Shown piece after piece: positions 1,661 through 27,356 of a DNA stretch of 64,000 nucleotides (positions are counted from its first letter, which is position 1; every line of letters begins with the position of its first letter). The translations under genes and the position numbers were made by a program. The stretch is taken from IMG/VR virus record IMGVR_UViG_3300008107_000010. One strand, 5' to 3'. This DNA comes from a virus. Taxonomy: Duplodnaviria; Heunggongvirae; Uroviricota; Caudoviricetes. A model generated the notes under the pieces. It was not told the DNA's origin and did no database searches. It was given only the letters and a program-made list of their open reading frames with translations.

Positions 1661-2857
1661 TTAAAATAATGATGTTGAATAAATTAAGTTACGATTTAAT
1701 GTTTGAAGACCGATAGAATCTAATACTCGATTTAACGGATCAATCATACTTTTTTCAAATTGCACTTCATAATCGATTGGAGGAGCAATTTCATAAGGAT
1801 GGTCTCCTGGGAAATATGCAAACATTTCACAATTTTTATGGTTACAATGATACAATTTAAGTTTTTCACCGTTACCAATTAACTTATACTTATTCTTGTA
1901 TTTTTGATTATTGTTTAGTAGATAATTATAGAATCCAGCAGCTTTTACATTTGGTGGACATTTAGAACCATATTGAAATTCGATATGGTCATCTACAATA
2001 TATTTCTCAATGTTATTAGTCCTTTTATTAAAAGAAATATCGTCAATGTCGGCCATTTTAAATTCTTTCTTAGTTTTCTTTAGAAAGTTAACAATTTTTG
2101 TTAGTGTTTCTGTTGTTGGCTTTTCTGTAAAAAGAATTTGTAATGCTTCAGTTAATTTTTTACGAATAAAAGTTGGTGTTGAAGATTGAATCGAATCAAA
2201 TCCGATAACTTTTACCTTTTTCAAAGAAGGATATCGCTCATGTGTTTTTAGCTTATCTTCCCATGCAATATCTTGAATATACTTTTTCTTAGCCATCCAA
2301 ATGCCTGAATACGCTATTGATTCAAGTTCAAACTGTAAGAAGCTTTCAGTGTTTTTAGAAGATGCATATTTATCTAATGCTTTAACAATATAATCTCTAA
2401 TTCGTAAATCATAAATTGTTAAAATAAAAGTTGCGATGTCCATCTTTTCACCAAGCCATTCAATAGAATCATACATTTCTTCAAATTGAACATAATTTGA
2501 ATCAGTATCAATATAAATTACAGCTTCTTTATAAATATTATTTTTTACTTTAATATTTAATTTCTTATGAACTTCCGTATCTTTAATAAAGAATTCTTGG
2601 AAATATTTGTTTAGAATTTTAGCCGAATATAAAATTGCATTTTGGCCTTGTAGTGTAATAGATTCTGCAATATCGATGTTGAAAAAGTGAAACCACTTGT
2701 TACCAAAGGCTCCATAGATCGAGTTTAGAGTTACTTTAACTGCTTGTTCATACGCGGTAAACTTGGCCGACTCATTGCTAAAATGAGTGGCCAAGATTTC
2801 TAACTCGTTTCTAGTAAGTTGATCTTCAGGTTTATTTAGTAGTTCCTCAATTGTCAT
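1661..2857 (-). CDS. polB: Family B DNA polymerase, C-terminal subunit (split gp43-like)
   Basis: Motif B KVTLNSIYG, motif C YIDTDS, KKKY, KVKVIGFD, KAAGFYN; lacks the exonuclease domain and motif A; ends TSLF. Confidence 0.93.
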   Translation of the reverse strand: MTIEELLNKPEDQLTRNELEILATHFSNESAKFTAYEQAVKVTLNSIYGAFGNKWFHFFNIDIAESITLQGQNAILYSAKILNKYFQEFFIKDTEVHKKLNIKVKNNIYKEAVIYIDTDSNYVQFEEMYDSIEWLGEKMDIATFILTIYDLRIRDYIVKALDKYASSKNTESFLQFELESIAYSGIWMAKKKYIQDIAWEDKLKTHERYPSLKKVKVIGFDSIQSSTPTFIRKKLTEALQILFTEKPTTETLTKIVNFLKKTKKEFKMADIDDISFNKRTNNIEKYIVDDHIEFQYGSKCPPNVKAAGFYNYLLNNNQKYKNKYKLIGNGEKLKLYHCNHKNCEMFAYFPGDHPYEIAPPIDYEVQFEKSMIDPLNRVLDSIGLQTLNRNLIYSTSLF

Positions 2858-3609
2858 TAATCAGCGGTTTGGCAAGTTGCAATAGTTAATAGAGTGGCAG
2901 ATTCAGTTGAACGAAGTACTACACGGTTTCCAAATACATAAGCTTTATAATCTTCTTTATCCAAGAGATTTAAGTACTTTTTGTAAACTGTAACACTTCC
3001 AGCTTCACCTTCATAATCAACACTTACTAATTTGTTGTATGATTTACCGCTCATTTTAACACCGCCATCGCCAGCTGTAATTGTGAACGTTTCATCTTTA
3101 TCAAGATTGAACAATGATTTAATACGTCCTGCTTCTACATTGCTTAATTCGAATACAAAATCAGAACCTTCTACATTAAAGATAGATTGTAATTGAGCAT
3201 CTGTAAGGTCTTTGTAACCCAATGATGGCTCTGAACAAGATAAGGTAATTTCCAAATCTTCATTAAAGATTTTAAAGCTAGATGCTACTAAATCTTCTTC
3301 ATTTTCAACAAATTCAATTTCGCCTTGAATTGTTTGGTAGTCGAATTGTTTGAAAGCTTCAATTAATTTAGAAGCATCAAAAAATGCAACTTTCATTTCT
3401 TTTTCTGGCGTAGCCTCTGTGATTGTGAAAATTTCACTTGCTGGAAATGCGTTATGTTTAACAGCATCTCTCTGCGGAAGATACGCGGAAGATACAACCT
3501 GGAGGTTATCTCCTTTAATTTTGAAATAGATGAACGAATCAATCAATTTCAACCTGTTTACAAAACCAATAAAATTGGCTTGATCTACTTTGTCAATTTT
3601 TAATTTCAT
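2857..3609 (-). CDS. Probable sliding clamp (gp45/PCNA-like)
   Basis: 250 aa acidic protein with a two-fold repeated beta/alpha pattern, coupled by a TAATG overlap to the polB C-half. Assignment rests on size and context only. Confidence 0.55.
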   Translation of the reverse strand: MKLKIDKVDQANFIGFVNRLKLIDSFIYFKIKGDNLQVVSSAYLPQRDAVKHNAFPASEIFTITEATPEKEMKVAFFDASKLIEAFKQFDYQTIQGEIEFVENEEDLVASSFKIFNEDLEITLSCSEPSLGYKDLTDAQLQSIFNVEGSDFVFELSNVEAGRIKSLFNLDKDETFTITAGDGGVKMSGKSYNKLVSVDYEGEAGSVTVYKKYLNLLDKEDYKAYVFGNRVVLRSTESATLLTIATCQTAD

Positions 3610-3645
3610 GTGATTTAAACTTTTAGAAACATTTGTTATTGATAA

Positions 3646-3673
3646 TTATATTCATAATGTACCTTTTGTTTCA
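3646..3673 (-). promoter_or_regulatory. Putative phage promoter TGAAAC-N15-AATATAA
   Basis: One of five minus-strand copies with an exact 15-nt spacer; lies upstream of the clamp/polB-C genes. Confidence 0.6.
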
Positions 3674-3676
3674 CAT

Positions 3677-3707
3677 AAAAAAGGGCAGGAGTAGCGAATT
3701 CCTGCCC
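3677..3707 (-). terminator. Intrinsic terminator after nrdA
   Basis: GGGCAGGA-N9-TCCTGCCC 8-bp stem followed by TTTTTT on the minus strand. Confidence 0.85.
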
Positions 3708-3767
3708 AGTATCCGTGAACTAGTCCCGGTCCTAAGAGTGGTCTTCAAACCACACCTTAAAAATTAT

Positions 3768-5582
3768 TTATCCATCACAACTTAAACAATCAACCATTGC
3801 TCTTTGTGCAATATCTCCTCTAAGTACTGATTCTGATCTCATATAATAAAGAGTTTTGATACCTTGATTATAGGCTTCTAAATGTACTTGATTGATAAAT
3901 TTAGGTTCTGCTTCATTTGGAAATGCTAAGTTTAAAGAAACTGCCTGGTCAACGTATTGTTGTCTAACTCCAGCCTGTTTAACTAATTCCATTTGATTAA
4001 TTTCTTTGAAAGTTCTATAAGCATCTTTCATTGGAATAAATTCATCTTTATGAACATTTTCTAATTCATTCATTTTATCTTTATGGATTGGGCGGCCTGC
4101 TTTTTCATCTAATTTTTCACCAACACGAACAAAATATTCATCCATCCAATCTAAACCTTGAACTGATCCGCCATCGGCTAAAATTTGATCCCAAGTTTCT
4201 TTGTTATTCTTTTTGATAAAAGATAAAGCTTTTTCTAAGGTTGGATTTTTACGAATAAAAGTTCCTTTAGCTGTTTGTTCGGTAAATACGTTTGCTGCCC
4301 AAGGTTCTACTCCAGCCGAAACATTACCAGATAATTTAGAGTTAGAAACTGTTGGAGCAATTGCACGTAAATGTGTGTTTCTCATTCCAGTTCCAACGCA
4401 CCATAAGGGTTCTCCAAATTCTGTTGCCATATCTCTACTTGCTCTTTCAGACTCTATTTTGATTTGACTAAAAATCTTACGAGTTTCAAATTGCGCAATA
4501 AGCGAATCAAATGGAATATTTCTGTCTTGTAGATAAGTGTGCCATCCTAAAACTCCAAGTCCTAATGCTCTACCTTTTTCAGCTGAACGAACTGAGTTTT
4601 CAAATCCTCTCATGTATTTTGCTCGACTAATAAATTCAGAAAGAACACCATCTAGAAAATATGTTGACGTATATACTAAATCAGTATCTTTCCATTCATC
4701 ATATTTTGCAAGGTTTAATGAGCTTAAACAACAAACAAATGAGTGATTCTCATCAGTGTGTAAAGTAATTTCTGAACAAATGTTGGTCATATAAACTTTT
4801 AAACCATTTTGTTTGTATGCTTCAGGGTTTGCTCTATTAACATTTCCTTTGTACATAATATATGGCTCTCCAGTTGCTTTACGTTTTCTAAGAACCGCAG
4901 CCCAGCGTTTTCTTGACTCTTTGTCTCCAGCTTCTAATTTAGCCATAAAACTATCAGAAACCACAGCACATTGGTGCATATTTAAGGATTGACGATTAAC
5001 ATCTCCCTTTGGTTCTCTAATTTCTAACCATTCCCAAAAATCACCATGTTCAATATCAATGTTAACTGATGCTGCTCCTCTTCTAACAGACCCTTGGTTG
5101 GTTGCTAAAATAGTAGAATCATAAATCTTAATAAATGGAACTACTCCATCTGATGTACCATTTTGAGAAATGCTAGAACCTGCTGGACGAATTTGATTTA
5201 CTCCAATTCCAACTCCACCTCCATGTTTTGCAAGTAGCATCATCTCTAAATTCTTAGAACCAATATCTTGAATTGAGTCGGCTACATCAATTCCAAAACA
5301 TGAAATTGGCAATCCTCTTTCTGTACCAGTATTTGATAAAACTGGAGTAGCTAAGTTTAACCAACCTTTCCAAATATAATCGAAGAATTTGCTTGCCAAT
5401 TCTGGCTTTCCTAATCTTTTTGCAACGCTAGTTGAAACTCTCCAATAAGCATCTTTAGGTGTTTCACCCTTTAACAAATATCCTTTTGATATTGTTTTAA
5501 CATAAATTTCTGTATTACCCCAAACTGGGAAATCTACTCCTAGTTCCCAGTTCAGTTGTTCTCCGTGATTAATTTGATCCAT
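3768..5582 (-). CDS. nrdA: Class Ia ribonucleotide reductase alpha subunit
   Basis: ATPVLSN, PISCF, GGGVG, RRGA, TNICSEI (catalytic N-x-C-x-E), CCLSSLNL, GLGVLG, IAPTVSNS, KTLYYMR, C-terminal CLSC; no N-terminal ATP cone. Confidence 0.97.
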   Translation of the reverse strand: MDQINHGEQLNWELGVDFPVWGNTEIYVKTISKGYLLKGETPKDAYWRVSTSVAKRLGKPELASKFFDYIWKGWLNLATPVLSNTGTERGLPISCFGIDVADSIQDIGSKNLEMMLLAKHGGGVGIGVNQIRPAGSSISQNGTSDGVVPFIKIYDSTILATNQGSVRRGAASVNIDIEHGDFWEWLEIREPKGDVNRQSLNMHQCAVVSDSFMAKLEAGDKESRKRWAAVLRKRKATGEPYIMYKGNVNRANPEAYKQNGLKVYMTNICSEITLHTDENHSFVCCLSSLNLAKYDEWKDTDLVYTSTYFLDGVLSEFISRAKYMRGFENSVRSAEKGRALGLGVLGWHTYLQDRNIPFDSLIAQFETRKIFSQIKIESERASRDMATEFGEPLWCVGTGMRNTHLRAIAPTVSNSKLSGNVSAGVEPWAANVFTEQTAKGTFIRKNPTLEKALSFIKKNNKETWDQILADGGSVQGLDWMDEYFVRVGEKLDEKAGRPIHKDKMNELENVHKDEFIPMKDAYRTFKEINQMELVKQAGVRQQYVDQAVSLNLAFPNEAEPKFINQVHLEAYNQGIKTLYYMRSESVLRGDIAQRAMVDCLSCDG

Positions 5583-5612
5583 GTAAAATATAATTGTATT
5601 GTTTATTTATTC

Positions 5613-6629
5613 TTATGAAAACATGTCATCCGCGTCCCAATTCTCATCTTCTCCTGCCTTTGAGTAGTCAGTTGGTCGAATTGCAAAAAAGTCAGTGTGT
5701 GTATGCCCTCCAGTTAAGTGATAGAACCAATCTAATTGACTAGCCATTGCTTCGCTATAATGGAAAATGCTTTCATATCCTAATTCATTAAGTTTTTCGT
5801 TTGCCCTTTTCTTAATAAATTCTTTAAGGTCTGCTGCTTGCATGTTTTCAAGGTCTCCCATTTCAAACATTTTATCAATGAATTGGAATTCCATTTCAAC
5901 CATTAATTTTGCAGCTTCTTCTACTTGAGATTGAACTGCACCTTTTAGTTCAGGATATTCTTCGCACATGTGTCGAAATAACTGACAGCCCATTTTTGAG
6001 TGTAATGATTCATCTCTAACTGACCATTTCATTTGCTGACCAATACCTTTAAGTAGGTTGCGCATCTGGAATGAATATAAAACTGCAAATGATGAATATA
6101 GTGAAACGCCTTCAGCAAAAGCAGAGAAGATCGCAAGTGATCTGGCTACTTCCTTTCTAGCAGAAGAATCGTGTTGTAAATCTAAATGATTATAATCATT
6201 ACTAGTTTCTAATAAGAATTCAAACTTTTGAGAAATTGATGGTTCTTTAAGAAATGCAGCAAAATCTTCTAATCCTAAAGTTTCATTTAAATATGAGTAA
6301 GCAACAGCATGTACTGTTTCATTCGAACCAAAAGCCATCGCCATTTGTCTAATCTCATGTTTTGGAAACCATTTAGTAACCATGCCAGTCCAATAATCTG
6401 AAACTGCACATTCAGTTTGTGCAAATCCTAATAATATATTACCAACAAGATTCTTTTCAGATGGTGTTAAGTTTTCATTCCAATCTTTAAGATCGCCTTG
6501 CATTGAAATTTCAGTATGTAACCAATGAGCTTGCATTACTGGAAGCCATCCTTCAGTATAGTACATTGGATATTCAAAGGGTTTATACTCTACGCGTTCA
6601 ACAAATAATGATGATTTTGAATTTTCCAT
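5613..6629 (-). CDS. nrdB: Class Ia ribonucleotide reductase beta subunit
   Basis: KPFEYP, HWLHTE, FAQTE, ETVHAVAY, AEGVSLYSSF, WSVRDESLH di-iron ligands, HTDFF tail. Confidence 0.96.
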   Translation of the reverse strand: MENSKSSLFVERVEYKPFEYPMYYTEGWLPVMQAHWLHTEISMQGDLKDWNENLTPSEKNLVGNILLGFAQTECAVSDYWTGMVTKWFPKHEIRQMAMAFGSNETVHAVAYSYLNETLGLEDFAAFLKEPSISQKFEFLLETSNDYNHLDLQHDSSARKEVARSLAIFSAFAEGVSLYSSFAVLYSFQMRNLLKGIGQQMKWSVRDESLHSKMGCQLFRHMCEEYPELKGAVQSQVEEAAKLMVEMEFQFIDKMFEMGDLENMQAADLKEFIKKRANEKLNELGYESIFHYSEAMASQLDWFYHLTGGHTHTDFFAIRPTDYSKAGEDENWDADDMFS

Positions 6630-6661
6630 TTTTTTAATTTTTTTTGCTTTTAATTTAGACT

Positions 6662-6690
6662 AAAATGGCCTAGATAGTTATTCCAGGCCA
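6662..6690 (-). terminator. Terminator-like hairpin between polB-N and nrdB
   Basis: TGGCCTGGA-N7-TCTAGGCCA (one G-U pair) followed by TTTT on the minus strand. Confidence 0.55.
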
Positions 6691-6747
6691 AGTGTTGTAG
6701 GGATTTCTTTATATATTAAAGTCATCTTCCTAGACTCATACCGGGAA

Positions 6748-8157
6748 TTAATCTTTTTTCTTAGCTAATAACTTTTTATAGTAATCTGCTTTTTCGTATA
6801 ACTGGTATGATGTTGATTTGTATTGTTTACGTTTTGAATATAAATCAGAAAGAATCATTTTTAACATTGAATCTTCTTTATTATAAACAACACCATTCTC
6901 GCAAACAATAACATTTTTATCTTTTCGACGCTCTTCAATTTTCGAAGCAGGTACCTTTTCAATAAAGGCATCTGGAGAAATATTAAACTGTCGCATGATT
7001 GATGGATATAGAGATGCAAAGTCAAATGCACTTACTCCAGCATAGAAACCAACTTTAGGTTCTTTAACAAAAGCTCCGGCATATTGTGTTTCTTTTTTAC
7101 CATCTTCACGTTGTTCTGAACCGATTCTAAATCCAGATTCTGCCATCTTACGAGCAATTAATGCTTCAGTTACAGCAACTGGAGAAGCAGCTTTATAAAT
7201 TGGCATTCTAGTAATATTAGCAAGAGTTAAAAGTACTTCCATTGATTTTAACTTTTTATCAATATAATATACTAGAACGGAGTCAACTACGTTATAATAA
7301 ACATACTTTTTAAAATCGTCTCGATATAAATCTTGTAAGCCTCCATTGTATTTAATTTTATTTAAATTTAATACTTGGCCAGAAACATAATCAAGTGAAT
7401 TTGATTCTTTAACTTTTACAGATTTATCATACTTATCATAAAGTTGCATGTAGTCAAGAATACCCATGTGTAATGGTCTTGAATCGGTTGGATCAACTGC
7501 TTTTGTAATTGCAGATTCAGCAATGTCAATTTGTAAATGCTTACAACGATTTACAATATATTGCCAGTCATAATTAATAAAATTCCAGCCGGTCATCATT
7601 GGAAACTTAGGCATAAATTTATACAAAAATGTATAAACCATGTCATACTCGGTTTTAAACTTAATATATTGAAAAGTCCAATCAGTGTCTAATGATTTAA
7701 AATATTCATTAGTATCTTTTTCAATTTGAGCGATTTGTTCTGAACTTAAATCTTCTAAACCTAATACGATTGCCTTTTTATTTGGAGTAATAATTGAAAA
7801 AGTAAGGATTCTTGATTTTGCTTCTTCAGCTCTTGGAAAACCGTCAACAATCTCAGTTTCAATGTCGACAAAATAAGTTTTTGGCATATTGTATGCGTAA
7901 ATTTCTTCTTTGTCTTTTTCAGAAAGACTGTCCATGAAATATACTAGCGAAAACTTATTAAACTGACGGGACGGCTGCAACTTAATTGCTCTGCCGTCCC
8001 AGTTTTTAAATTTTTGGCTTGCTTCGCGCTCTTTTTGGTCACAAACAAACCAGTTTTGATACTGATTAATTGGGTATCTCTTAAATGCAACTTCACCTTC
8101 TTTATTGTAAAAAGAGATCATTACCTCTTTATCTCTTTGCTCAATATCTAATAACAT
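6748..8157 (-). CDS. polB: Family B DNA polymerase, N-terminal subunit (3'-5' exonuclease plus motif A)
   Basis: ExoI FVDIETE, ExoII TGWNFINYDWQYI, ExoIII YYNVVDSVL, motif A FDFASLYPSIM; ends after the first fingers helix (LYSKRKQYK). Confidence 0.93.
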   Translation of the reverse strand: MLLDIEQRDKEVMISFYNKEGEVAFKRYPINQYQNWFVCDQKEREASQKFKNWDGRAIKLQPSRQFNKFSLVYFMDSLSEKDKEEIYAYNMPKTYFVDIETEIVDGFPRAEEAKSRILTFSIITPNKKAIVLGLEDLSSEQIAQIEKDTNEYFKSLDTDWTFQYIKFKTEYDMVYTFLYKFMPKFPMMTGWNFINYDWQYIVNRCKHLQIDIAESAITKAVDPTDSRPLHMGILDYMQLYDKYDKSVKVKESNSLDYVSGQVLNLNKIKYNGGLQDLYRDDFKKYVYYNVVDSVLVYYIDKKLKSMEVLLTLANITRMPIYKAASPVAVTEALIARKMAESGFRIGSEQREDGKKETQYAGAFVKEPKVGFYAGVSAFDFASLYPSIMRQFNISPDAFIEKVPASKIEERRKDKNVIVCENGVVYNKEDSMLKMILSDLYSKRKQYKSTSYQLYEKADYYKKLLAKKKD

Positions 8158-8624
8158 TAATATCCTCGTTTTTGGCGTTGCTTATTCTCTTCTGCTTTTG
8201 CAAAGTAGTAATTGTATGCTGTTTTTGCATCTAATCCAATAGATGCTGCATAATTTATAAAGAAGTGTAGAATATCTACCCATTCCATATAAAGCTCTTT
8301 GCGATCGTTTTCTGAAAGATCGGAAATTTTCAGGTTTTCATACTTTGTATGAGCTGTTTTCCAATACTTCCATACTGCATTACCATCTCCATCTTTAATG
8401 CCACCAAGTGCATCGGTCATTTCATGAATTTCATCAAGCACTGCGTGAGTGTTAACATGCCAGAAATTCATAATATCTCTGATTGTCATGTTATCAAAAT
8501 CAAAGCCATAAGTTTTTTCTTGCATTTCTTTTTGGTGGTTCATTATATCCGCCAAGTGTGTTGTAGATTTATCATAGAAGTCATTTACTTCTAAATCTTT
8601 ACATTCATTATCAATATTTGCCAT
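8157..8624 (-). CDS. All-alpha dNTP pyrophosphatase (dimeric dUTPase / T4 gp56 dCTPase-like)
   Basis: DEIHEMTDA, WKYWK, EWVDILHF, Y..K..EN..RQ.RGY signature of this family. Confidence 0.85.
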   Translation of the reverse strand: MANIDNECKDLEVNDFYDKSTTHLADIMNHQKEMQEKTYGFDFDNMTIRDIMNFWHVNTHAVLDEIHEMTDALGGIKDGDGNAVWKYWKTAHTKYENLKISDLSENDRKELYMEWVDILHFFINYAASIGLDAKTAYNYYFAKAEENKQRQKRGY

Positions 8625-8640
8625 ATACTATTTTATAGTT

Positions 8641-9069
8641 TTATTTATTATTGTTTACGAATTTAATATAATCGTGAATATAATTTCTGATTCTTTCAGA
8701 TCCGACAGGATTCATTGAATGTACATGAAATTCTGGAAATTTTAACTTATTGTCAATACAATACTCTACCAAAAATTTAGCACAGTCCAAACCTGTTTTT
8801 TCTTCAAATTCTTGCGGATAATCAGCGCCATCTCCACACATTGCTGGAGAATAATGTTCATCTGCTAAATCATGGTCAAAAGATACTAATTCAGGAACTC
8901 CATTAGTTACAATCCATTTTACGAATTGATTGTAATCTTTAACAATATCCCACTGTTTTTGGGTATAATCAGCAGCCGCAAGTCCAATACGAGCAGGCAT
9001 ATATGCAATACAATCGTATGGATGCCTAAAATCGTCTAAGAATAAATTTTTGATATTACTTGCTTTCAT
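8641..9069 (-). CDS. Cyclic-phosphate-processing receiver-like domain protein
   Basis: LFLDDFRHP, VSFDHDL, TGLDCAKFL, HSMNPVG motifs. Start moved to MKAS (9069), just after the promoter at 9075-9102. Confidence 0.7.
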   Translation of the reverse strand: MKASNIKNLFLDDFRHPYDCIAYMPARIGLAAADYTQKQWDIVKDYNQFVKWIVTNGVPELVSFDHDLADEHYSPAMCGDGADYPQEFEEKTGLDCAKFLVEYCIDNKLKFPEFHVHSMNPVGSERIRNYIHDYIKFVNNNK

Positions 9070-9074
9070 AATAG

Positions 9075-9102
9075 TTATATTAGAAAAGCGCGTTTTGTTC
9101 AA
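9075..9102 (-). promoter_or_regulatory. Putative phage promoter TTGAAC-N15-AATATAA
   Basis: Variant of the repeated motif, 5 nt before the ATG at 9069. Confidence 0.5.
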
Positions 9103-10129
9103 AATTATTATTAAAAAAGTACTCCATAACTGAATCATCGGTTCTGGCTACTTTTCGACGGCTAATTAAATGCGGATTGTTTCTTAGTCGGTAATAAACT
9201 CCATACTGACAAAGACCAACTTCGCAGCCATAAGTTTTAAGATCGTTTTGTTCTTCTTGGAAAATTTTCTTACCATCAACGTAAACATTATGCGTGGATT
9301 CATGTAATGGAATGTCTCCAATTAGATCTTTGTAGTTTTCTCGGAACCAAATAACTCTATCGCCATAAGGAATATCACATCCTTCGCCAAACATAAGATC
9401 TAATGTATATCTAGCACCAGGACCAGGAACACAGAATCTTTCGTCATGGTTAATTGGAATTCTTGGATTTACAGAATTAGACGTTGAACAGTGATATCCG
9501 TAGTATTGTCCCACACCTTCAAGCGAGGAGATAATATCATACATCTCACTTAAAGATTTTACTTGGGCCATTCTACCTGTGATTCCTCGAGGTATAAAAG
9601 ATGCTACCCATAATAGAATATTGATTTTATGAGCATCTCTTGGTTGATTTCTTAACTGAGCAACATAATTATTCGCAGCACCAAAAAGACTTGTACGTAA
9701 TTCCGTACTTCCATAGATTGGTAAACCTAAAGAAACGGCATCTTCTAAATTTTTACGGATTTTATCTTCATATTCTCTATCAACTAAAAGTCTTTCAAAA
9801 TCAACTAAAGCTGTTTTAGGATTCGGGTCTCTTGTTAATACTTGGTGAATTCCACGAGCTCCATAGAAGTGAGAAATAATTGTGTTGCAAATAATATTAT
9901 CCATTGAGATTGGAGCATACACGATGTTCTCCATGATATATCTCATACGATCGTCTAGAGTAATTTGAGGATGGAAATATTCAACTGTTTCTCCAAGAGC
10001 ATCGTCTCCACCACTGTCGTAACTTTCAAGAACACCCATATTATAGAGTGCTCTTTCATTTACTTTATTAAAGAATCGTCCAACGTCTTTTACAACGTCC
10101 ATATTGACTTGTTCAATTATATTACTCAT
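9080..10129 (-). CDS. aGPT-Pplase1 / amino-acid:DNA-transferase-like DNA-modifying enzyme (HhH-glycosylase-like fold)
   Basis: Helix-hairpin-helix-like LEGVGQYYGY, FCVPGPGARYTL, late EVGLCQYGVY motif matching this family's E..LCE..KY pattern; divergent. Confidence 0.65.
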   Translation of the reverse strand: MSNIIEQVNMDVVKDVGRFFNKVNERALYNMGVLESYDSGGDDALGETVEYFHPQITLDDRMRYIMENIVYAPISMDNIICNTIISHFYGARGIHQVLTRDPNPKTALVDFERLLVDREYEDKIRKNLEDAVSLGLPIYGSTELRTSLFGAANNYVAQLRNQPRDAHKINILLWVASFIPRGITGRMAQVKSLSEMYDIISSLEGVGQYYGYHCSTSNSVNPRIPINHDERFCVPGPGARYTLDLMFGEGCDIPYGDRVIWFRENYKDLIGDIPLHESTHNVYVDGKKIFQEEQNDLKTYGCEVGLCQYGVYYRLRNNPHLISRRKVARTDDSVMEYFFNNNFEQNALF

Positions 10130-10138
10130 AATATTATT

Positions 10139-10810: not shown

Positions 10811-10818
10811 ATTTTATA

Positions 10819-11187: not shown

Positions 11188-11200
11188 TTCTTTCTTTTTT

Positions 11201-11242: not shown

Positions 11243-12421
11243 TTAAGCCTTAACTTGTTTCTCTGTAACTTTAGTAAGTTTACGATTTGCTAAAGCTTCG
11301 CATTCTTGAACAGCGTCAACAAACATCATTTGTTGAGGCGGTGTCTTTTGAGTAAATGCAGATGGTCCACGAAGAGCACCAACAATTCCCATTTCTCTTG
11401 CAACTCTAACATAACGTAGAGCGTCAATTACAACTCCTGCGGAGTTTGGACTATCTTGTACAGATAGTTGAGCATCAAAAATAACCGGTGCTCCACCAAA
11501 TCCTTCAAGTTCTAAACGGAAGTTTGCAACTTTATTATCTCCATAGTAAGAGATATATTCAGAAGGACCAGCATGTAAGAATGAACCTTCGGTTGAGATT
11601 CCACGAATATCATTCTGAGCACGAATTACATTCTCTTTAGAAATCTTTTTAGATTTCAAACGAGATTTATCTTCCATATTCAAGAAGTCAGTATTACCAC
11701 CAACATTACGTTGAATATGTGCTCTTACTACGTGGCCTCTTTCGAATGCAAGTTCTTGTAACATTTGAGACAAGATAGATGCACCAAATTGAGAACGCAT
11801 ATCATCACCGATCAATGGAATTCCTGCGTCGATAAAACGTTTCTCCCATGCTGGATCAGATGCAATAAATACTGGAATACAGTTAACAAAAGAGATTCCA
11901 GTTTCTAGACAAATTTCTGCCCAAAATTCTGTTGCTGCTTGAGAACCTACTGGTAAGTAGTTAATCAATACCTCAACTTCATGTTCTTTTAATTGAGAGA
12001 TGATTTTGTCTTTCCACTGTCTGTCTTTTTTATCAGTCCATTCAGTACGATTAGTTTCAGTTGAATTTCTCAACTCTTCAGAAACCAAGAAACGATTTGT
12101 TTCTGGATATGCATCCATTAACAATGCGTAACCATCAATAACTGGTGCTTCATATACTGGAGCAGTAGAATCGATAGTTGGAACAATGTCCCATGCAGAG
12201 TTTGGACGCTGCTTCAATGCAACACCTAATGGTTGATTTACTTTACGTTCATCAATATCAAAAGCACAAACGAATTCAATATCTTTTGCACCATATCCAC
12301 CAATGTCGCTACGCATCATACCGTCGATGTTTGCTTCATTTTCGGTGTAGAATTGTACTCCTTCTACTAGAGACTTGGCACAATTTCCTGTACCAATAAT
12401 TGCAACTTTAATTTTACTCAT
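11243..12421 (-). CDS. ino1: Myo-inositol-1-phosphate (inositol-3-phosphate) synthase, bacterial type
   Basis: IIGTGNCAKSLVEG, AFDID..KV, NYLPVGS, NCIPVFIA, GDDMRSQFGA, NVGGNTDFLNM, RLKSKKISK, DSPNSAGVVIDA; all core motifs are intact. Confidence 0.96.
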   Translation of the reverse strand: MSKIKVAIIGTGNCAKSLVEGVQFYTENEANIDGMMRSDIGGYGAKDIEFVCAFDIDERKVNQPLGVALKQRPNSAWDIVPTIDSTAPVYEAPVIDGYALLMDAYPETNRFLVSEELRNSTETNRTEWTDKKDRQWKDKIISQLKEHEVEVLINYLPVGSQAATEFWAEICLETGISFVNCIPVFIASDPAWEKRFIDAGIPLIGDDMRSQFGASILSQMLQELAFERGHVVRAHIQRNVGGNTDFLNMEDKSRLKSKKISKENVIRAQNDIRGISTEGSFLHAGPSEYISYYGDNKVANFRLELEGFGGAPVIFDAQLSVQDSPNSAGVVIDALRYVRVAREMGIVGALRGPSAFTQKTPPQQMMFVDAVQECEALANRKLTKVTEKQVKA

Positions 12422-12444: not shown

Positions 12445-12472
12445 TTATACTTATAATTTATAAAAGGTTTCA
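12445..12472 (-). promoter_or_regulatory. Putative phage promoter TGAAAC-N15-AGTATAA
   Basis: Copy of the repeated motif directly upstream of ino1. Confidence 0.55.
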
Positions 12473-13519
12473 AAATAGGCTAGTAACTTTTGGTTTAAGT
12501 TCTGGATTCTTTTTTCCGGTTTCAAAGTCATATTGATAATATTTCCTTGAAAGGTGCACCGATCCGGGTTTTTCCATATACATATCCGCATAGTCTTTAG
12601 GGCTAAGTTGATACCATTCGATTGGCCATTCGATTAATTCGTATCCGGCCTCACTTAGATATATACTCAGCTTTTGATTAAAAATTCGACAAATTTCTAA
12701 TCTTTTTTCTAAAGATCCATAAAAAGGTGTTCCTTTGTAGAATCCAGTTTTTGGAATTCTGCGTTCTTCATGATCGATTGGTAATAATTTGACTACACTA
12801 ATCTTTGGAATGTTTAAAGATTTTAAATGTTCAACATAATTCTTAACCAAATCTTCAGTTGCTTTAACCGGATCTGGTTGTCGGCATAAATGGTGTCGAA
12901 TATCAATATTACCAAAATACGTAATTAGGTGTTTAGTTCCTTCTGGAATATAGGTTGTCATACCTTCTTTAATAACTCCAAATAATGTTTTACCATCATT
13001 TCGACTGATATTTGAGCCTGGTACATAAACTGAAACCGAATGGCTATCACCTAACACAAATATATCAGACTTTAGAGTTGTATCTATTGTCTGAGTTTCT
13101 ACTGATTTTGTACTTAAAGTTTCAACATCAAGATTTTTCCAAATCTCAGTACATGCATTCATTCTGCTTTTAGCAAATGCTCCAATGTCTGGCATTTGTC
13201 TATTTAGACAATACACAGATCCTTTAAAATCTATTAGCCTTTGCATTCTAATTGCAGTTTCATCATTAGCACCGCCAAATAAATTGTAACTTCCTTGAAA
13301 TTCCATTGGTAAAGCTACTAACCAAACGTCATAGTTATGAACATTTGCATCTTTGGTTAAAACGGTAGCATCAATACCTAGACTCTTTAATTGTGACATT
13401 AATAAATATGTCCATGCTGATTTATGAGATTCTGGTTTTGAACTATAAGTAGTAACCACATCATCTATTGCAACTTTTTTACCAAGTAAAGAATCTTTTA
13501 TATCGTAGATGCTTATCAT
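12470..13519 (-). CDS. Two-domain protein: beta-glucosyltransferase-like N domain plus SGNH-like C domain
   Basis: N-half KVAI..YLL..LKSLG..V.NYD..YNLFGG..FKGSVYCL resembles the T4 BGT acceptor domain as recalled; C-half has LGDSHS, FGNIDIRHH and SVH; ends TSLF. Confidence 0.5.
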   Translation of the reverse strand: MISIYDIKDSLLGKKVAIDDVVTTYSSKPESHKSAWTYLLMSQLKSLGIDATVLTKDANVHNYDVWLVALPMEFQGSYNLFGGANDETAIRMQRLIDFKGSVYCLNRQMPDIGAFAKSRMNACTEIWKNLDVETLSTKSVETQTIDTTLKSDIFVLGDSHSVSVYVPGSNISRNDGKTLFGVIKEGMTTYIPEGTKHLITYFGNIDIRHHLCRQPDPVKATEDLVKNYVEHLKSLNIPKISVVKLLPIDHEERRIPKTGFYKGTPFYGSLEKRLEICRIFNQKLSIYLSEAGYELIEWPIEWYQLSPKDYADMYMEKPGSVHLSRKYYQYDFETGKKNPELKPKVTSLF

Positions 13520-21008: not shown

Positions 21009-21009
21009 T

Positions 21010-22290: not shown

Positions 22291-22294
22291 AATC

Positions 22295-22326
22295 AAAAAA
22301 GACCTGAGTGTTCTATACTCAGGTCT
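22295..22326 (-). terminator. Intrinsic terminator after the 930-aa gene
   Basis: Perfect 10-bp stem AGACCTGAGT-N7-ACTCAGGTCT followed by TTTTT. Confidence 0.8.
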
Positions 22327-22344
22327 AATATTTATCTTTTTAAA

Positions 22345-25137
22345 TTATACCATTTCCTGATTAATCATTGCGTGGCAAACGTTTACTGAGATCCATTTAG
22401 CTTTATCAAAAAATTCTTTTGCTAATTTTTTAATTTTAGGCTCTTGGTTAGAAGGTAATTTATTCTCTTCGTCAGCGGCTTCTTCATCCCATGATTTAAC
22501 TGCAATTTTCCAAATTGTATCAAAATCACGACTTTTTTCATAATATTTTGAATTTCCTTGTCTGTCTATATGATCGTGATAATCTGCCCAATACTTTACA
22601 TCGATTCCTTCATTAGAAACTGATTCTCCAAGAGAACTTGTTAGAGTTCCAACGCATGCACCATAATCATCTCCACATTTCTTAAGAATACCATCTACAA
22701 CTTCTTGAGCTTTTTCAGCATCAAATTCTTCACCAAATGCTTTTTGTAAAACATTAAATGCGTATTCTTTAAATTCATCATCTGTTTGAATTTCTTCTTC
22801 AGAAATCAATGATTCATTTTTGCTAAACTTTTTAATGGCTTTATCCATTTCGTCATCAGTCATAACATGAACCATTCCGCCTACTTTTTTAGATACTTTA
22901 GTCGCTGACATAATATCATCGTATTTCATAGCATCAGCTGGATTTGTAGAAAAATCGCTACCAGTGTACCATTTATTACCACTTAAAACATGCCAATGTT
23001 TACCTTCAGTAACAACTGATTCAGCAGCCATACCATAACAGTCTGTAAATTCATCAATATCTAAACCGTAATGGTCAACAACTTCCATGATTTCATCTGG
23101 AAAATCCATTTCGTCATTTCTCATTGATTTTCTAAGACCAGTTACTTTATCATAATTATCATATACGAATGAAGCAACATCCATACATTCTGGATTATCT
23201 CCTAATTGAGAAATAATCCAATCTAAACCTTTAGCTTTTGCTTCATTAACTTCTGCTGATTCTTTAATACCAAGCTCTTTTAAAGATTTAACTTGCTCGC
23301 CTTTATCTTCTCCAGTTTCTTCGTCAGCATACCATAAAAGTCCTGCTTTAATTAATCTTCCATAGATTTCAGATGCAACTAACTCAAATGGAAAAGAGTC
23401 TGATGAATTTTCCCATGTTGTAGCTACGTAATCTGGATCAATCCAACCGATACCTCTTTTAATAGATTTCTCCATATCGGCATAGTCCATTTCAAATTGC
23501 TTTACAGCACCTTCATTAACTTCTAAAGATTCGTTTTTCTTTACATAATCTTGAAGATCTTTTACTTCGTCTTTTAATTCTTTTGGTATATTATTTGTGA
23601 ATGTATTCCAATTAAAACTTGCTTTAACAATCATAAACAAAGGTAAGCCAGAATTTCTTTTACCGAATTCAGATCTTTCAATCCAATCTAAATAATATTC
23701 AGCTAGTTCTTTTGACATTTTAATACCTTCGGCTCTTGAAGTATTTCCTTTAATAATATCGTTAAGTAATCTCTTAGCCATGCCATGTGAACCTTCGTTG
23801 ACTTCAACTGATTCCATTTTAGCATTTGCAATTACTTCTGCGATAGTTTCTAATAAATCTTCAGTTTTCTTTCTAACTGAAAGCAAATCCATGTCGACTA
23901 ATTTATTAAGAACTTTATGTGCAATAATTCTGCCACCTTTAATAGAAACTACTCCTTCAGTAATTTTAGATTCTTCTACTTTATAAGTTTTACCTTGAAA
24001 TTCGAATTCGTCTTTACCTTCTTCTTTTGCCTTTCTAACCGCATCTCCAAAAGCATTTCCCTCTTCAAGTTCCTCGGCTTCTTCTACTTTATAAGTTTTA
24101 CCTTGAAATTCGAATTCGTCTTTACCTTCTTCTTTTGCCTTTCTAACCGCATCTCCAAAAGCATTTCCTTCTTGAACTTCTTCATCATCTTCATTAACGG
24201 TCTTAGCACCATGTACTTTGTATGTTTTTCCGTTAAATTCAAAAGTTTTTTGACCTTTATTTCTTGCGGCAAAAAGAGCTCCAGTAAATGCATTTCCTTC
24301 AGAAACTGCTAATTCAAGATCTTTATCTTTACCAGCAACTGCATCGTTTAATTCAGCTTCTAAAGCTTTTTTCTTAGCAGTCATTGCTTTTAATTCATCT
24401 AATAAAGCTGCTTTAGCATCGCCTTCGGCTGCTTTCCATTCTTGAGCTTTAGCTGCCATTTCAGCAGTAATTTTGCTCCAATCATTTTGAATTTTATTAA
24501 TTGAACGAGCTTCAAAAATATATGCTTCTTCGATGAATTCTTCTAGACCACTATCTTTTCCCCAGAAATCTTGAATCATTTTTTCAAGATCCTTCTTTTT
24601 ACCAACATATTCAACTTCTGGATAGTTGGCTGCAGGACCATTCATATTTACGATTTTCCACTTAATACCCTTTTTCTTACAAAAATCAACTAGACCTTTT
24701 TCATTAGGCTCAATAGCATCTAGAGTAACTGTAGCTTCATATAAATCTGCTTGAACTTCTTCAGCATCATCAGCATCTTCTTTTTCAGGCTCTCCTAAAT
24801 CTTTGATTTTACCTTCGATTTCTTCAGCGCGGTCTTCTTCAACTTTTTTAAGAACATCTTCAACTGCATCTTTTTCTTTACCCATCGCCATAATTTCTTT
24901 TTCGATTTCTTCAGCGCGGTCTTCATTAAAAATTTTTGCAACTAGTGCTCTTTTCTTTTCTTCGTCAAGTTCTGACATGTCTGAAATTTCTAACTCATCT
25001 AAGATAGCTGAAATTTTCTCAAGAGATTTAACTCTTTTACTTTTATTATCTTGTTCAGTCTTTACAGCATCCTGCTGTTTTTTCATTTCTGAAAAAGATT
25101 TAAATGATGAAATTCTGTTTAGTTCCATTTTATTCAT
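22345..25137 (-). CDS. Large acidic, repeat-containing probable head polyprotein
   Basis: 930 aa, very E/K-rich, about 20 x-x-E-(A/G/S) sites, internal repeats, late-type promoter motif upstream. Confidence 0.6.
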   Translation of the reverse strand: MNKMELNRISSFKSFSEMKKQQDAVKTEQDNKSKRVKSLEKISAILDELEISDMSELDEEKKRALVAKIFNEDRAEEIEKEIMAMGKEKDAVEDVLKKVEEDRAEEIEGKIKDLGEPEKEDADDAEEVQADLYEATVTLDAIEPNEKGLVDFCKKKGIKWKIVNMNGPAANYPEVEYVGKKKDLEKMIQDFWGKDSGLEEFIEEAYIFEARSINKIQNDWSKITAEMAAKAQEWKAAEGDAKAALLDELKAMTAKKKALEAELNDAVAGKDKDLELAVSEGNAFTGALFAARNKGQKTFEFNGKTYKVHGAKTVNEDDEEVQEGNAFGDAVRKAKEEGKDEFEFQGKTYKVEEAEELEEGNAFGDAVRKAKEEGKDEFEFQGKTYKVEESKITEGVVSIKGGRIIAHKVLNKLVDMDLLSVRKKTEDLLETIAEVIANAKMESVEVNEGSHGMAKRLLNDIIKGNTSRAEGIKMSKELAEYYLDWIERSEFGKRNSGLPLFMIVKASFNWNTFTNNIPKELKDEVKDLQDYVKKNESLEVNEGAVKQFEMDYADMEKSIKRGIGWIDPDYVATTWENSSDSFPFELVASEIYGRLIKAGLLWYADEETGEDKGEQVKSLKELGIKESAEVNEAKAKGLDWIISQLGDNPECMDVASFVYDNYDKVTGLRKSMRNDEMDFPDEIMEVVDHYGLDIDEFTDCYGMAAESVVTEGKHWHVLSGNKWYTGSDFSTNPADAMKYDDIMSATKVSKKVGGMVHVMTDDEMDKAIKKFSKNESLISEEEIQTDDEFKEYAFNVLQKAFGEEFDAEKAQEVVDGILKKCGDDYGACVGTLTSSLGESVSNEGIDVKYWADYHDHIDRQGNSKYYEKSRDFDTIWKIAVKSWDEEAADEENKLPSNQEPKIKKLAKEFFDKAKWISVNVCHAMINQEMV
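23971..24168. repeat. Exact 90-nt direct repeat, two copies, period 108 nt, in frame
   Basis: 23971-24060 equals 24079-24168; encodes GNAFGDAVRKAKEEGKDEFEFQGKTYKVEE. Confidence 0.95.
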
Positions 25138-25186
25138 ATTTTTTTAATCTTATCTTATATATTCATTTGAATTTACTAAAGTTTAC

Positions 25187-26695
25187 TTATGCCGAACCGT
25201 CAAATGTAACCTTCTTAACGTCGAATTTAAATTTTTCTTGATTATAGATTCTTTGTCGTTCTTGTCCATGCCTATAAAGATAGCAATCCCAATCAGCCGT
25301 TGACAAATTATCAACAAAATCTACAATTATTACTTCTTTTTTTGACTCGTGCTGTCTAAGTCCTCGACCAATTGATTGTCTAATGATAACTTCTGATTTA
25401 AATGATTCCGTGAAGAAGACGCTGTGAATCTTTTTAATCGAGATTCCCGTTGAAAAAGTTCCGTAAGATGCAACAATGACAACTTCGTCCCCGTGTTCCA
25501 TCTTCTTTTTATACTCTTCTCTAATATCTGAATCTGTTCCACCGTCAACATAGAAAACCTTTTTTTGACTTCTTTGGCGTAATGCATCGTATAACCTTTT
25601 ACCATGCTCGATTCGGTGAAAAAGAACCAAAGAATTCCTTGGTACTCTGGAAATAACGTTGACAATGAAGTCAAGACGTGCATCATTGTTGATGATGTAG
25701 TTTTGCTCGAGTTGGAAGACATCTTTATTTTCGTATCTGTTCTGAGCAAGTTCTTGGAAAGCTTTCTTTGTTGCTTCTGGTGCATAATCCATTTCTATTA
25801 CTTTTACACGACACTGTGCAATGTGGCCTTCTTGCTGTAAATATGCTGCTTTTACTTCAGTAATTACAGGACCTGTTTGAGACATCAGTGTTAGCTTATC
25901 TATTGATCCATCCTTTGGAATTGTTCCGGATAGACCAAATCGATAGTGTGCATTTCTGCATTTTGCTAAAATATCTTTAATTGATTGTGATTTGGCTTTG
26001 TGTGTTTCATCGACGATTACACAATCAAATTCATCGAAGTATTCTTTCTCTTTTTTAATTAGGGATTGATATGTACCAATAACCACATTTGCATTCGGTT
26101 TAACCTTTTGACCAGAGTAGATTTGTTGAATTCTAATCTTAACTTGGTTTTTCCAATTATAGTCAATAAAGTCCTCACTTGCCTGAACGACAAGAGAAAC
26201 ATTTGGTACGATAAAAAGAATTTTTTGTGCTTTTTGTTTTTCTAGCATATAGGCAACTGTCATAAAGGAAATCATTGTCTTTCCAGCTGATGTTGCTAAT
26301 TCTGCTAAGCATCTTTTAAATTTAAGAATATTAAAAGCTGCATCAATTTGATAATCATGCGGTGTTAATTTATAGCCATTGAAAAAATCATATGCCCATT
26401 TTTCAAATCCTTCTGCTGTGATATTTCGATCAAATATGCGAGTAATTCCATTAATTTTTAAATCAAAGTTGTATTCTTTGCAAACCTCCATGACATATTT
26501 CCATAGACCTGCAGGAATCCATTTATTATCTTTAATGTATGAAATGTACCCGTCCCAAACACCCCTTTTGACTAGAGGATTAAACCTCCAGCCATCAATT
26601 CGCTTGGTGAGACTTAAATTTAATTGTTCGAGTTCAAGTTCATCAGCTTCATCAATTCGTAAAAACCTATTATCATCTGTTAGTGTAATTACCAA
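25187..26695 (-). CDS. uvsW: UvsW-like SF2 DNA helicase
   Basis: PHDYQ, LATSAGKT, IVPNVSLV.Q, VDETH, GLSGT, YGTFSTGISIK, QSIGRGLR. Confidence 0.95.
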   Translation of the reverse strand: MVITLTDDNRFLRIDEADELELEQLNLSLTKRIDGWRFNPLVKRGVWDGYISYIKDNKWIPAGLWKYVMEVCKEYNFDLKINGITRIFDRNITAEGFEKWAYDFFNGYKLTPHDYQIDAAFNILKFKRCLAELATSAGKTMISFMTVAYMLEKQKAQKILFIVPNVSLVVQASEDFIDYNWKNQVKIRIQQIYSGQKVKPNANVVIGTYQSLIKKEKEYFDEFDCVIVDETHKAKSQSIKDILAKCRNAHYRFGLSGTIPKDGSIDKLTLMSQTGPVITEVKAAYLQQEGHIAQCRVKVIEMDYAPEATKKAFQELAQNRYENKDVFQLEQNYIINNDARLDFIVNVISRVPRNSLVLFHRIEHGKRLYDALRQRSQKKVFYVDGGTDSDIREEYKKKMEHGDEVVIVASYGTFSTGISIKKIHSVFFTESFKSEVIIRQSIGRGLRQHESKKEVIIVDFVDNLSTADWDCYLYRHGQERQRIYNQEKFKFDVKKVTFDGSA

Positions 26696-26712
26696 AACTC
26701 ATCTTTGTATTT

Positions 26713-27147
26713 TTAAAGTTGCTTCATATCAATTCGATTCTTAATTGCAAATCCAATATTATCAAGCGTTTTAACAGAATTTGTAAAGAAATCTTTTTGA
26801 TTCTCTAACAATTCTAGTATTTGATAGTCCTCAGATAAATCAGCCTCAATAAATCTTACGCGCTGTCCATCTGAAAGTTTATAATCATAGTTGTAATAAC
26901 CAATCCAAGCGGTCTTATATTCTCTATCTAGTTTTGCTTTTTGTGCTCTGATCTTAGAGCTAATAGATGCCATCATATCAACTAAAATTTGTCGATAGCT
27001 AAGAGTATATGAAGATGTTTCGGGAAGATTAACTCCAGCCTTTAATTCATCTGCAACTTCTCTGATTTTCTTAGTCCATTCAGCTCTTTGAGCTGCTAAA
27101 TACTCATCTAGTTGCTGTATTTTATTTGGTTTAGTTTCAACTTCCAT
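26713..27147 (-). CDS. uvsY: UvsY-like recombination mediator
   Basis: 144 aa helical protein immediately upstream of uvsW (T4 synteny); YY..DYKL...FIEAD and FAIKNRID patterns. Confidence 0.6.
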   Translation of the reverse strand: MEVETKPNKIQQLDEYLAAQRAEWTKKIREVADELKAGVNLPETSSYTLSYRQILVDMMASISSKIRAQKAKLDREYKTAWIGYYNYDYKLSDGQRVRFIEADLSEDYQILELLENQKDFFTNSVKTLDNIGFAIKNRIDMKQL

Positions 27148-27158
27148 TATTAATTATT

Positions 27159-27356
27159 TTAAAATAAGCTATTGCTGTTTTTATCGGGTTTTATATAAAT
27201 ACTGGTTTTCACCTTTTGTTTAAATTTAGGTTTAATTTCAGTACTTATTTTAGTTCCTTCATATTCATATTTTGATGCCTCAAAATCAACAAGAGTTTTT
27301 AAACCCTTAAACTGATCTTTTTGTCTTTCAAAATCTTCAAATTCGTTATCGATCAT
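27159..27356 (-). CDS. Small hypothetical protein ending in SLF
   Basis: Likely start MIDNEF at 27356 (the track start 27389 overlaps the primase); ends NSNSLF. Confidence 0.6.
   Translation of the reverse strand: MIDNEFEDFERQKDQFKGLKTLVDFEASKYEYEGTKISTEIKPKFKQKVKTSIYIKPDKNSNSLF

Follow-up and report, generated by a model that had tools for sequence, protein, structure and literature searches.

A conserved Leu-Phe carboxyl terminus shared by the DNA polymerase and two putative DNA hypermodification enzymes of an uncultured T4-type phage suggests docking on a phage-encoded sliding clamp

Why should a phage DNA polymerase, two putative DNA-modifying enzymes and a small protein without a known family share their last residues? 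This question is raised by a 64,000-nucleotide stretch of the IMG/VR virus record IMGVR_UViG_3300008107_000010 (Caudoviricetes), hereafter referred to as the window, which belongs to a phage genome of 32% G+C, carries all of its genes on the minus strand (1-64000) and holds a T4-type replication module in its left 30 kb. A first-pass annotation made from the letters alone had reported that four proteins encoded there possess near-identical [S/A]LF tails, and all four tails can be read in the sequence as it described:

1661..2857, minus strand: C-terminal half (PolB-C) of a split T4 gp43-type family B DNA polymerase (Pfam DNA_pol_B, E 1.9e-17; phrog_1918/262 DNA polymerase)
Tail codons 1664-1672, stop codon 1661-1663, minus strand: end of PolB-C, ...NRNLIYSTSLF
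9080..10129, minus strand: HMUDK_hel-domain protein (Pfam PF18723) of 349 amino acids (aa), putative DNA base hypermodification, end ...NNNFEQNALF
12470..13519, minus strand: SGNH-type two-domain enzyme of 349 aa (AlphaFold2, AF2, and Foldseek), end ...KVTSLF
27159..27389, minus strand: 76-aa protein without a known family, its gene immediately downstream of that of the gp61-type primase, end ...NSNSLF

The last six residues read YSTSLF in PolB-C, EQNALF in the HMUDK_hel protein, KVTSLF in the SGNH-type enzyme and NSNSLF in the 76-aa protein. Among the 55 called, non-overlapping open reading frames (ORFs) of at least 40 aa in the window, these four, all on the minus strand, end in [S/A]LF and no other ends in LF; the statement that no other called gene ends in this way holds for this set, seven short nested or antisense ORFs with LF ends being the exception. 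Given the amino-acid composition, 0.23 LF ends would be expected (P(>=4)=8e-5) and 0.03 [SA]LF ends (P=3e-8), and correcting for any shared C-terminal dipeptide brings the value to P=0.02. Spurious ORFs of this AT-rich DNA end in LF in 7/370 cases and in [SA]LF in 2/370, and with this rate as the null P is 0.02 for LF and 2e-4 for [SA]LF. According to the null chosen, the excess thus ranges from moderate to strong, and the window statistics alone are suggestive, not conclusive. A repeated DNA element at the gene ends was considered and ruled out: the tail codons differ among the four genes (Leu TTA/CTT/CTA, Phe TTT/TTC, Ser TCA/AGC), as does the DNA downstream, so the four tails are not copies of one element.

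Orthologues were collected by assigning every ORF of 121 related loci to the window proteins by BLASTP. The first-pass annotation had held that tails not conserved in homologues would speak against a shared function; instead, an xLF end (any residue followed by Leu-Phe at the carboxyl terminus) is present in 60/60 distinct orthologues of PolB-C (63-92% identity), 32/32 of the HMUDK_hel protein and 46/46 of the 76-aa protein (32-57% identity), and an [SG]LF end in 31/31 of the SGNH-type enzyme. Across the 17 window families with at least seven distinct orthologues, only three, all of them LF families, keep the last two residues in 100% of cases, against 17-83% in the remaining families. Position -3 can be S, A, T, Q, G or P in the PolB-C, HMUDK_hel and SGNH-type families, and also C, E, K or R in other tailed families; the constrained unit is therefore Leu-Phe-COOH. 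As the codons for these two residues differ synonymously among orthologues (e.g. TTA/CTA/CTT/CTG), selection acts on the protein. The same end recurs in more distant proteins, namely a paralogue-like HMUDK_hel protein of 29% identity in the relative G002 (...SSCLF) and a PolB-C homologue of 48% identity in the 462-kb phage LR756500 (...NLIYSSSLF). The residues preceding the tail vary, most strongly in the SGNH-type enzyme and also in the 76-aa protein (positions -10 to -4 in each), and the SGNH-type tail is modelled poorly, with an AF2 predicted local distance difference test score (pLDDT) of 66 in the last block versus >90 for the body. The tail is a short hydrophobic terminal motif on a flexible, poorly conserved linker.

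The nearest record, G001, does not contain the region, and a genome-wide count of LF ends was made in G002, a 234-kb relative with 338 ORFs, where seven end in LF versus 1.3 expected (P=4e-4). Counting such ends against chance, the check proposed in the first-pass annotation, therefore yields an excess both there and in the window (P from 8e-5 to 0.02 by null). The G002 set consists of PolB-C, the HMUDK_hel protein, the SGNH-type enzyme, a 5'-3' exonuclease or flap endonuclease (FEN), RNase HII (210 aa), a 147-aa protein and the small subunit of ribonucleotide reductase (RNR). The exonuclease (410 aa) matches Pfam 5_3_exonuc_N and, by phmmer, T4 rnh (RNase H), and its gene directly follows that of a clamp loader. 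Orthologues of FEN, RNase HII and the 147-aa protein in four further relatives are all xLF-ended (56-97% identity), and in the relatives FEN and RNase HII thus carry the same end as PolB-C. Across cellular life and in T4, the common partner of polymerase, flap endonuclease and RNase HII is the sliding clamp. By these comparisons of orthologues the motif is under purifying selection in seven protein families, and it is close to certain that xLF-COOH represents a selected, shared functional tail.

The 147-aa protein (L133:11756-12199 in G002; orthologues in L251-L255) ends ...KKxIN[RKS]LF in 6/6 genomes, and its gene is located a few kb downstream of uvsX in the relatives, just outside the region corresponding to the window. 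It falls in no known family and the ESM Atlas gave no match for it; the protein is another candidate for a clamp-bound regulator.

An entirely different account of the LF end, as a degradation or stability signal for a host or phage protease or as a compositional accident of AT-rich gene ends, is extremely unlikely. C-terminal hydrophobic residues can serve as degrons, and about 2% of the spurious ORFs in this DNA do end in LF, but an accident is excluded by 100% invariance in 169 distinct orthologues from four families with synonymous codon turnover, and a degron would leave unexplained both the replication-fork membership of the set and the clamp-type motifs found in its place in other lineages.

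If the tail is a docking peptide, the phage should offer something to dock on, and the gene immediately preceding PolB-C encodes a candidate:

2857..3609, minus strand: sliding clamp of 250 aa with a two-domain PCNA/gp45 fold (predicted structure)

The AF2 model of this protein, built on an alignment from a library-wide search, reaches a pLDDT of 96.6 and a predicted TM-score (pTM) of 0.91. All top Foldseek matches in the PDB are PCNA chains (E 5e-13, probability 1.0), BFVD yields Tenacibaculum phage proteins (TMq 0.84-0.88) along with annotated phage sliding clamps and viral PCNAs, and the ESM Atlas model gives TM values of 0.74-0.83 to gp45 and PCNA clusters. The predicted structures show a PCNA/gp45-type clamp fold in which two domains share the beta-alpha-beta-beta-beta topology, with a size within the range of ~230-260 aa, and the clamp candidate at this position, put forward in the first-pass annotation, is upheld by AF2, Foldseek and the Atlas alike. 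The identification is structural because sequence searches were empty or nearly so: Pfam, PHROG, NCBIfam, phmmer against the PDB and tblastn returned nothing or nearly nothing for the protein, a profile search against PDB sequences gave a weak match to Sulfolobus PCNA1 (E 0.006), and the Pfam clamp models (DNA_PPF/gp45-slide_C and PCNA_N/C) match neither the protein nor 102 homologues. None of the 161 homologues from a library-wide HMMER search has a clamp family match either, and DNA_PPF (PF02916) was not found in five relatives; as a control, T4 gp45 itself matches both Pfam gp45 models. The protein belongs to a clamp family that current sequence models, including those of Pfam, miss.

The clamp and polymerase genes are coupled, the stop codon of the former overlapping the start codon of PolB-C (TAATG), and the order clamp, then PolB-C also occurs in LR756500 and in Tenacibaculum phage pT24. 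G002 encodes a clamp loader of the gp44 type (Gp44_lid; phrog_168, E 3e-74) at a locus outside the region corresponding to the window. A 369-aa ORF upstream of this loader had been considered as a DnaN-like clamp; nothing spoke in its favour and it was dropped once the 250-aa protein had been identified.

Based on the shared, conserved tail, xLF-COOH is very probably a clamp-binding peptide, and the best reading is that the modification enzymes ride a clamp; that the tail binds the phage's own clamp, and so tethers the two enzymes to the replication fork, is likely. According to this model, the phage would make a trimeric PCNA/gp45-type clamp (2857-3609), co-translated with the tail-bearing half of its polymerase, and a gp44-type loader would place it on DNA. 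The Leu-Phe pair would insert in a hydrophobic pocket on the clamp face, and the clients would share the ring as a tool belt. These would include the polymerase, FEN and RNase HII for Okazaki fragment processing, two small proteins and, as unusual clients, the HMUDK_hel protein and the SGNH-type enzyme of a hypermodification cluster built around myo-inositol-1-phosphate synthase (ino1). Tethering would let both enzymes act on newly made duplex DNA just behind the fork. We infer, in other words, that the tail binds a clamp, that this clamp is the phage's own and that modification is co-replicative.

The pairing itself was addressed by complex prediction, for which the clamp was paired with the HMUDK_hel protein at full length, an alignment being supplied for each, in three runs with three controls. 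The score was 0.45 in all three runs, with a best control of 0.00; the runs agree in at least 42% of contacts, and the partner pLDDT is at least 84. In the calibration of the prediction tool, 58 of 80 solved complexes pass the mark, as do 2 of 110 mismatched pairs; with a score of 0.60 or less, it is passed by just 7 of those 80 complexes and by both of these mismatches. The prediction lends weak support to the clamp and HMUDK_hel pairing and does not resolve the tail as the contact site. The idea that the enzymes ride the phage clamp and act behind the fork, as first proposed from the letters, is partly supported: by the shared and conserved tail, the clamp fold and the tails of FEN and RNase HII, and weakly by the complex prediction.

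Several points weigh against this reading. The sole structural test of binding is the weak one (0.45) just given, which comes without reported contacts, and with the strictest null the excess of LF ends in the window is just moderate (P=0.02). No tail of the four matches the PCNA-interacting peptide (PIP) box, Qxx[LIM]xx[FY][FY], or the T4 motif [ST]LDFL, followed by [FYL], and the last three residues are equally compatible with the bacterial beta-clamp motif, as is QNALF in the HMUDK_hel protein. Nor is an LF end sufficient to mark a protein as a clamp client, because the RNR small subunit has LF-type ends in relatives: its acidic tail ends in DLF or ELF in most of them (DDMFS here) and probably binds the large subunit, by analogy with other class I reductases. 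DNA as the target of both enzymes is itself deduced from family and context. Finally, pT24, with a structurally similar clamp in the same position, has a PolB-C ending ...QVTKSIFKKKKL; its polymerase tail differs, and the tail code is therefore lineage-specific. No shared tail code was seen in the 150 of 235 kb of pT24 that were covered.

Separately, a 299-aa clamp-fold protein of pT24 (L278:41591-42490, record 141591-142490) itself ends ...ENPLF, and this clamp may carry a self-binding or loader-binding tail.

What, then, are the two enzymes that share the polymerase's tail? Both belong to a hypermodification-type cluster at 8.1-21 kb, comprising the HMUDK_hel protein, an FkbM-type methyltransferase, ino1, the SGNH-type 349-aa enzyme and a cytidylyltransferase-like protein, in which ino1 is placed between the genes of the two tailed enzymes:

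11243..12421, minus strand: myo-inositol-1-phosphate synthase (ino1; Pfam Inos-1-P_synth, E 3e-22), no LF tail

The 9080-10129 protein matches PF18723 over residues 59-316 (E 1.7e-12, 47.8 bits, cut-off 25). It has no Pfam match to the aGPT-Pplase/AADT family, and the Walker A pattern [AG]xxxxGK[ST] occurs neither in it nor in 120 homologues. By its domain match it carries the helical domain of 5-hydroxymethyldeoxyuridine (5-hmdU) DNA kinases without a P-loop and is not to be called a kinase; the earlier label 'AADT-like' has to give way, since Pfam assigns HMUDK_hel and no aGPT-Pplase family. One homologue is annotated 'putative DNA base hypermodification protein'. The SGNH-type enzyme is modelled by AF2 with a pLDDT of 93.8 as a Rossmann-like N-domain followed by a C-terminal SGNH/GDSL domain, Foldseek returns GDSL/SGNH esterases and acyltransferases (probability 1.0, TMt up to 0.59), and the invariant residues include G157, D158, S159, H160 and H322 (GDSH...H); the linker leading to KVTSLF is basic and disordered. 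Of the 'BGT/SGNH hybrid' seen in the first reading, the SGNH half is clear. The N-domain resembles the DNA-binding domain of T4 beta-glucosyltransferase (beta-GT) weakly, in an hhalign comparison (probability 37%, E 3.5e-4, 61 columns) that includes NLFGGA against NFFGGK, and no beta-GT structure is among the top 50 Foldseek matches. The first half of PHROG 17781 (795 positions) matches the SGNH-type enzyme and the second half the HMUDK_hel protein, which means that the two are fused in some phages; because of this fusion they very probably act together. That both act on DNA we infer from family, fusion, context and tail.

The gene directly after that of the HMUDK_hel protein (window 8641-9138) encodes a protein with a cREC_REC (cyclic-phosphate processing receiver) domain, and its true start is probably an ATG 13 nt past the HMUDK_hel stop codon, rather than the upstream ATG at 9138.

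The 76-aa protein is the product of a real gene, with 46 distinct orthologues in which L75 and F76 are among only six invariant columns; these were taken from DNA loci, a word-index protein search having returned just two proteins. The protein has no match in Pfam, PHROG or NCBIfam. Its N-terminal helix is acidic, and it also possesses a basic PKFKKK..SVYIK stretch and an N/K-rich linker of variable sequence; the helix and the basic stretch, both conserved, suggest a second partner. The suggestion that this small ORF encodes a gp33-like co-activator finds no support: it does not match PF16805 (Trans_coact) at E<=1, a model that T4 gp33 matches at E 5e-27, and hhalign of the family alignment against T4 gp33 gives a probability of 0.14%, so that the two are alike only in size and in their clamp-type tails, with no sequence relation detected. 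In five relatives, phmmer and Pfam searches with PF16805 and T4 gp55 likewise returned nothing, and no tailed gp55 or gp33 homologue was found by sequence among the window's 76-aa ORF and the relatives.

The ino1/HMUDK_hel/SGNH cluster is also carried by phages that have a family A polymerase together with a primase-helicase (PolA-type phages), and here the tails change in kind. Three such loci of ~20 kb each were compared, together with the best 120 homologues of each enzyme. The more distant homologues have no LF end, and many keep a hydrophobic terminal motif of another type. The SGNH homologue of PolA-type phages ends QKTLF, QHSLF or QQSLF (Q[HQK][ST]LF), and the HMUDK_hel homologue ends QVSMFDIIDELI, QLGLFD or QTDIFDCLT; QLGLF is also the C-terminal tail of E. 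coli Pol II. Within the last 14 residues, Qxx[LIMV]F is found in 7/54 non-LF homologues versus 1.1% of internal 14-residue windows, the seven being related to one another and so not seven independent events. Judged by these residues, the PolA-type tails are close to the bacterial beta-clamp motif QL[S/D]LF. There are also lineages in which the SGNH-type enzyme ends LF[LF]D[VI]T, the IMG/VR records in question (G009 and G010) being fragments without polymerase genes. From their terminal motifs, clamp-type tails accompany both enzymes in two or more replication backbones that are unrelated, and clamp docking is therefore likely to be part of how both work. The beta-type motifs in PolA-type phages imply that the cluster moved between phages, keeping clamp-type tails.

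The same motifs raise the question of whether the tails of the two modification enzymes, and perhaps others, dock instead on the host beta clamp (DnaN), wherever it is loaded on phage DNA. The bacterial consensus QL[S/D]LF has xLF-COOH as its last part, Gln occupies position -5 in 18/22 distinct HMUDK_hel tails, and the PolA-type enzymes carry the fuller beta-type motifs (QLGLF, QQSLF) in phages for which the ~20-kb loci read contain no phage clamp gene. In the lineage of the window, however, polymerase, FEN and RNase HII of the phage itself bear the same tail, there is a phage clamp that is translated together with this polymerase and, in a relative, a loader, and the beta motif's Gln and its Leu at -4 are both missing from the polymerase, SGNH-type and 76-aa tails. 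When paired with the phage clamp, the HMUDK_hel protein also passed the controls of the complex prediction, if weakly. Docking on the host clamp is, on this evidence, unlikely.

A second alternative leaves any clamp out and gives the xLF tail a different hub of the replisome as its partner, for example a gp32-type single-stranded-DNA-binding protein (SSB), the helicase/primase or the polymerase. Shared C-terminal tails do organise other hubs, for instance through pockets that bind the SSB tip, a second tail class (D[LM]PF) is common to the primase-helicase and small proteins of PolA-type phages, and the 76-aa gene adjoins the primase and SSB genes. Set against this, the clamp is the common partner of polymerase, FEN and RNase HII in the three domains of life and in T4, a terminal aliphatic-aromatic pair is the signature of a clamp pocket, and no candidate pocket protein besides the clamp was found, which makes such a hub very unlikely.

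The second tail class deserves description in its own right. The primase-helicase of PolA-type phages and a ~96-aa protein (in L150 a 190-aa protein too) end D[LM]PF, SLPF or ELPF, at the following positions:

L150:18373-19824: D[LM]PF/SLPF/ELPF-type end
L150:11367-11660: D[LM]PF/SLPF/ELPF-type end
L274:15632-17104: D[LM]PF/SLPF/ELPF-type end
L274:11098-11388: D[LM]PF/SLPF/ELPF-type end
L275:11117-11404: D[LM]PF/SLPF/ELPF-type end

The C-terminal tip of bacterial SSB is DDDIPF, which these ends resemble, and they form a second shared tail code in the same PolA-type genomes. A further resemblance, which may be due to chance, is that T4 alpha-glucosyltransferase (alpha-GT; L242:36624-37826) ends ...KEQFDIITK, similar to the ...QVSMFDIIDELI tails of some HMUDK_hel homologues; beta-GT ends ...FKKAIDL.

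Docking on the phage's own clamp, the reading that we favour, follows a known principle; what is new here is the motif, the Pfam-unrecognised clamp family and the clients. The tails of gp43, gp55 and gp33 of T4 and RB69 bind the gp45 clamp, a trimer of two-domain subunits, and in the T4 record they read ...SLDFLFG, ...SLDFLYEAND and ...TLDFLL, respectively. In both cases the replisome is T4-type and unrelated proteins, including the polymerase and a small protein (~100 aa in T4), share one hydrophobic C-terminal peptide. Unlike in T4, the x-L-F here is located at the very carboxyl end without an LDFL core, the Pfam gp45 models fail to recognise the diverged clamp, the clamp gene separates the two halves of a split polymerase, and the client set includes FEN, RNase HII and two hypermodification enzymes. 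In cells, the corresponding peptides are the bacterial beta-clamp motif QL[S/D]LF and the PIP box, the latter on PCNA clients such as FEN1, RNase H2 and DNMT1, a eukaryotic DNA-modifying enzyme. The phage tail resembles these as a short terminal peptide on a flexible linker, with an aliphatic-aromatic end, on polymerase, FEN and RNase HII, and differs in that just the last two to three residues are fixed, Gln is absent from three of the four window tails and a PCNA-like clamp of the phage, in place of DnaN or cellular PCNA, is the presumed receptor. xLF-COOH would be the functional counterpart of the T4 [S/T]LDFL[F/Y/L] tails, the PIP box and QL[S/D]LF.

The closest precedent for a modification enzyme on a clamp is T4 alpha-GT, which co-purifies with gp45 while beta-GT does not (PMC13216743, confirming Sommer et al., 2004), a contact proposed to make modification concurrent with replication (PMC13216743). 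Here too a DNA-modifying enzyme acting after replication would be tethered to the phage clamp. The T4 contact, by contrast, was found biochemically, and the portions of PMC13216743 at hand note no shared docking motif; in the present phage the prediction is drawn from a motif that the polymerase also carries, both enzymes are tailed and the cluster is of the thymidine-hypermodification type. A full-text literature search for hypermodification together with the sliding clamp returned nothing closer than alpha-GT and gp45. With the 5-hmdU DNA kinase and amino-acid:DNA transferase pathways, which hypermodify thymidine (Lee et al., 2018, PMC5889632; Lee et al., 2021, PMC8989533), the window shares the helical domain and a modification-type gene cluster; unlike in those pathways, the 9080-10129 protein has no P-loop and no aGPT-Pplase/AADT match, and its partners are ino1, an FkbM-type methyltransferase and the SGNH-type enzyme. 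The pathway paper of Lee et al. (2021; PMC8989533) makes no mention of the clamp, the replisome or the replication fork.

The remainder of the replication module is in keeping with a T4-type replisome and includes a UvsW-type helicase, a gp61-type primase and a gp32-type SSB, as well as the following genes:

179-1351, minus strand: UvsX-like recombinase, part of the T4-type replication module
5613-6629, minus strand: RNR small subunit, end ...DADDMFS
6748..8157, minus strand: N-terminal half of PolB, with the exonuclease and the start of the polymerase domain (Pfam DNA_pol_B_exo1 and DNA_pol_B)

The family B polymerase is encoded in two genes ~3.9 kb apart (window 1661-8157), and its halves are separated by the genes for the large and small subunits of class I RNR and by the clamp gene. 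The C-terminus of the N-terminal half is variable, its commonest last two residues occurring in just 17% of orthologues. The nearest database relatives of the polymerase are those of uncultured huge phages and T4-like cyanophages, and IMG/VR holds more than 100 related contigs of up to 234 kb.

Post-replicative base hypermodification shields phage DNA from restriction and CRISPR. The pathway paper (PMC8989533) does not deal with how the enzymes responsible keep up with replication; the one known case is the T4 alpha-GT contact with gp45. A tail common to polymerase, FEN and RNase HII offers a simple, testable mechanism for co-replicative modification, and the tail is independent evidence that the ino1-linked cluster acts on DNA. 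xLF-COOH would also provide a sequence rule for listing clamp clients, two new small proteins included, in a large, uncultured and widespread group of aquatic phages. More tentatively, hypermodification enzymes may be general clamp clients with an exchangeable tail code that is retuned as the cluster moves, reading xLF-COOH where the clamp is PCNA-like, as in these T4-like phages, and Qxx[LIM]F in PolA-type phages, whose enzymes would use the host beta clamp; the 76- and 147-aa proteins would then be new clamp-bound regulators, one of which may replace gp33 in linking late transcription to replication. If this were true, hypermodification would be physically coupled to the fork, and no unmodified DNA would be exposed to host nucleases.

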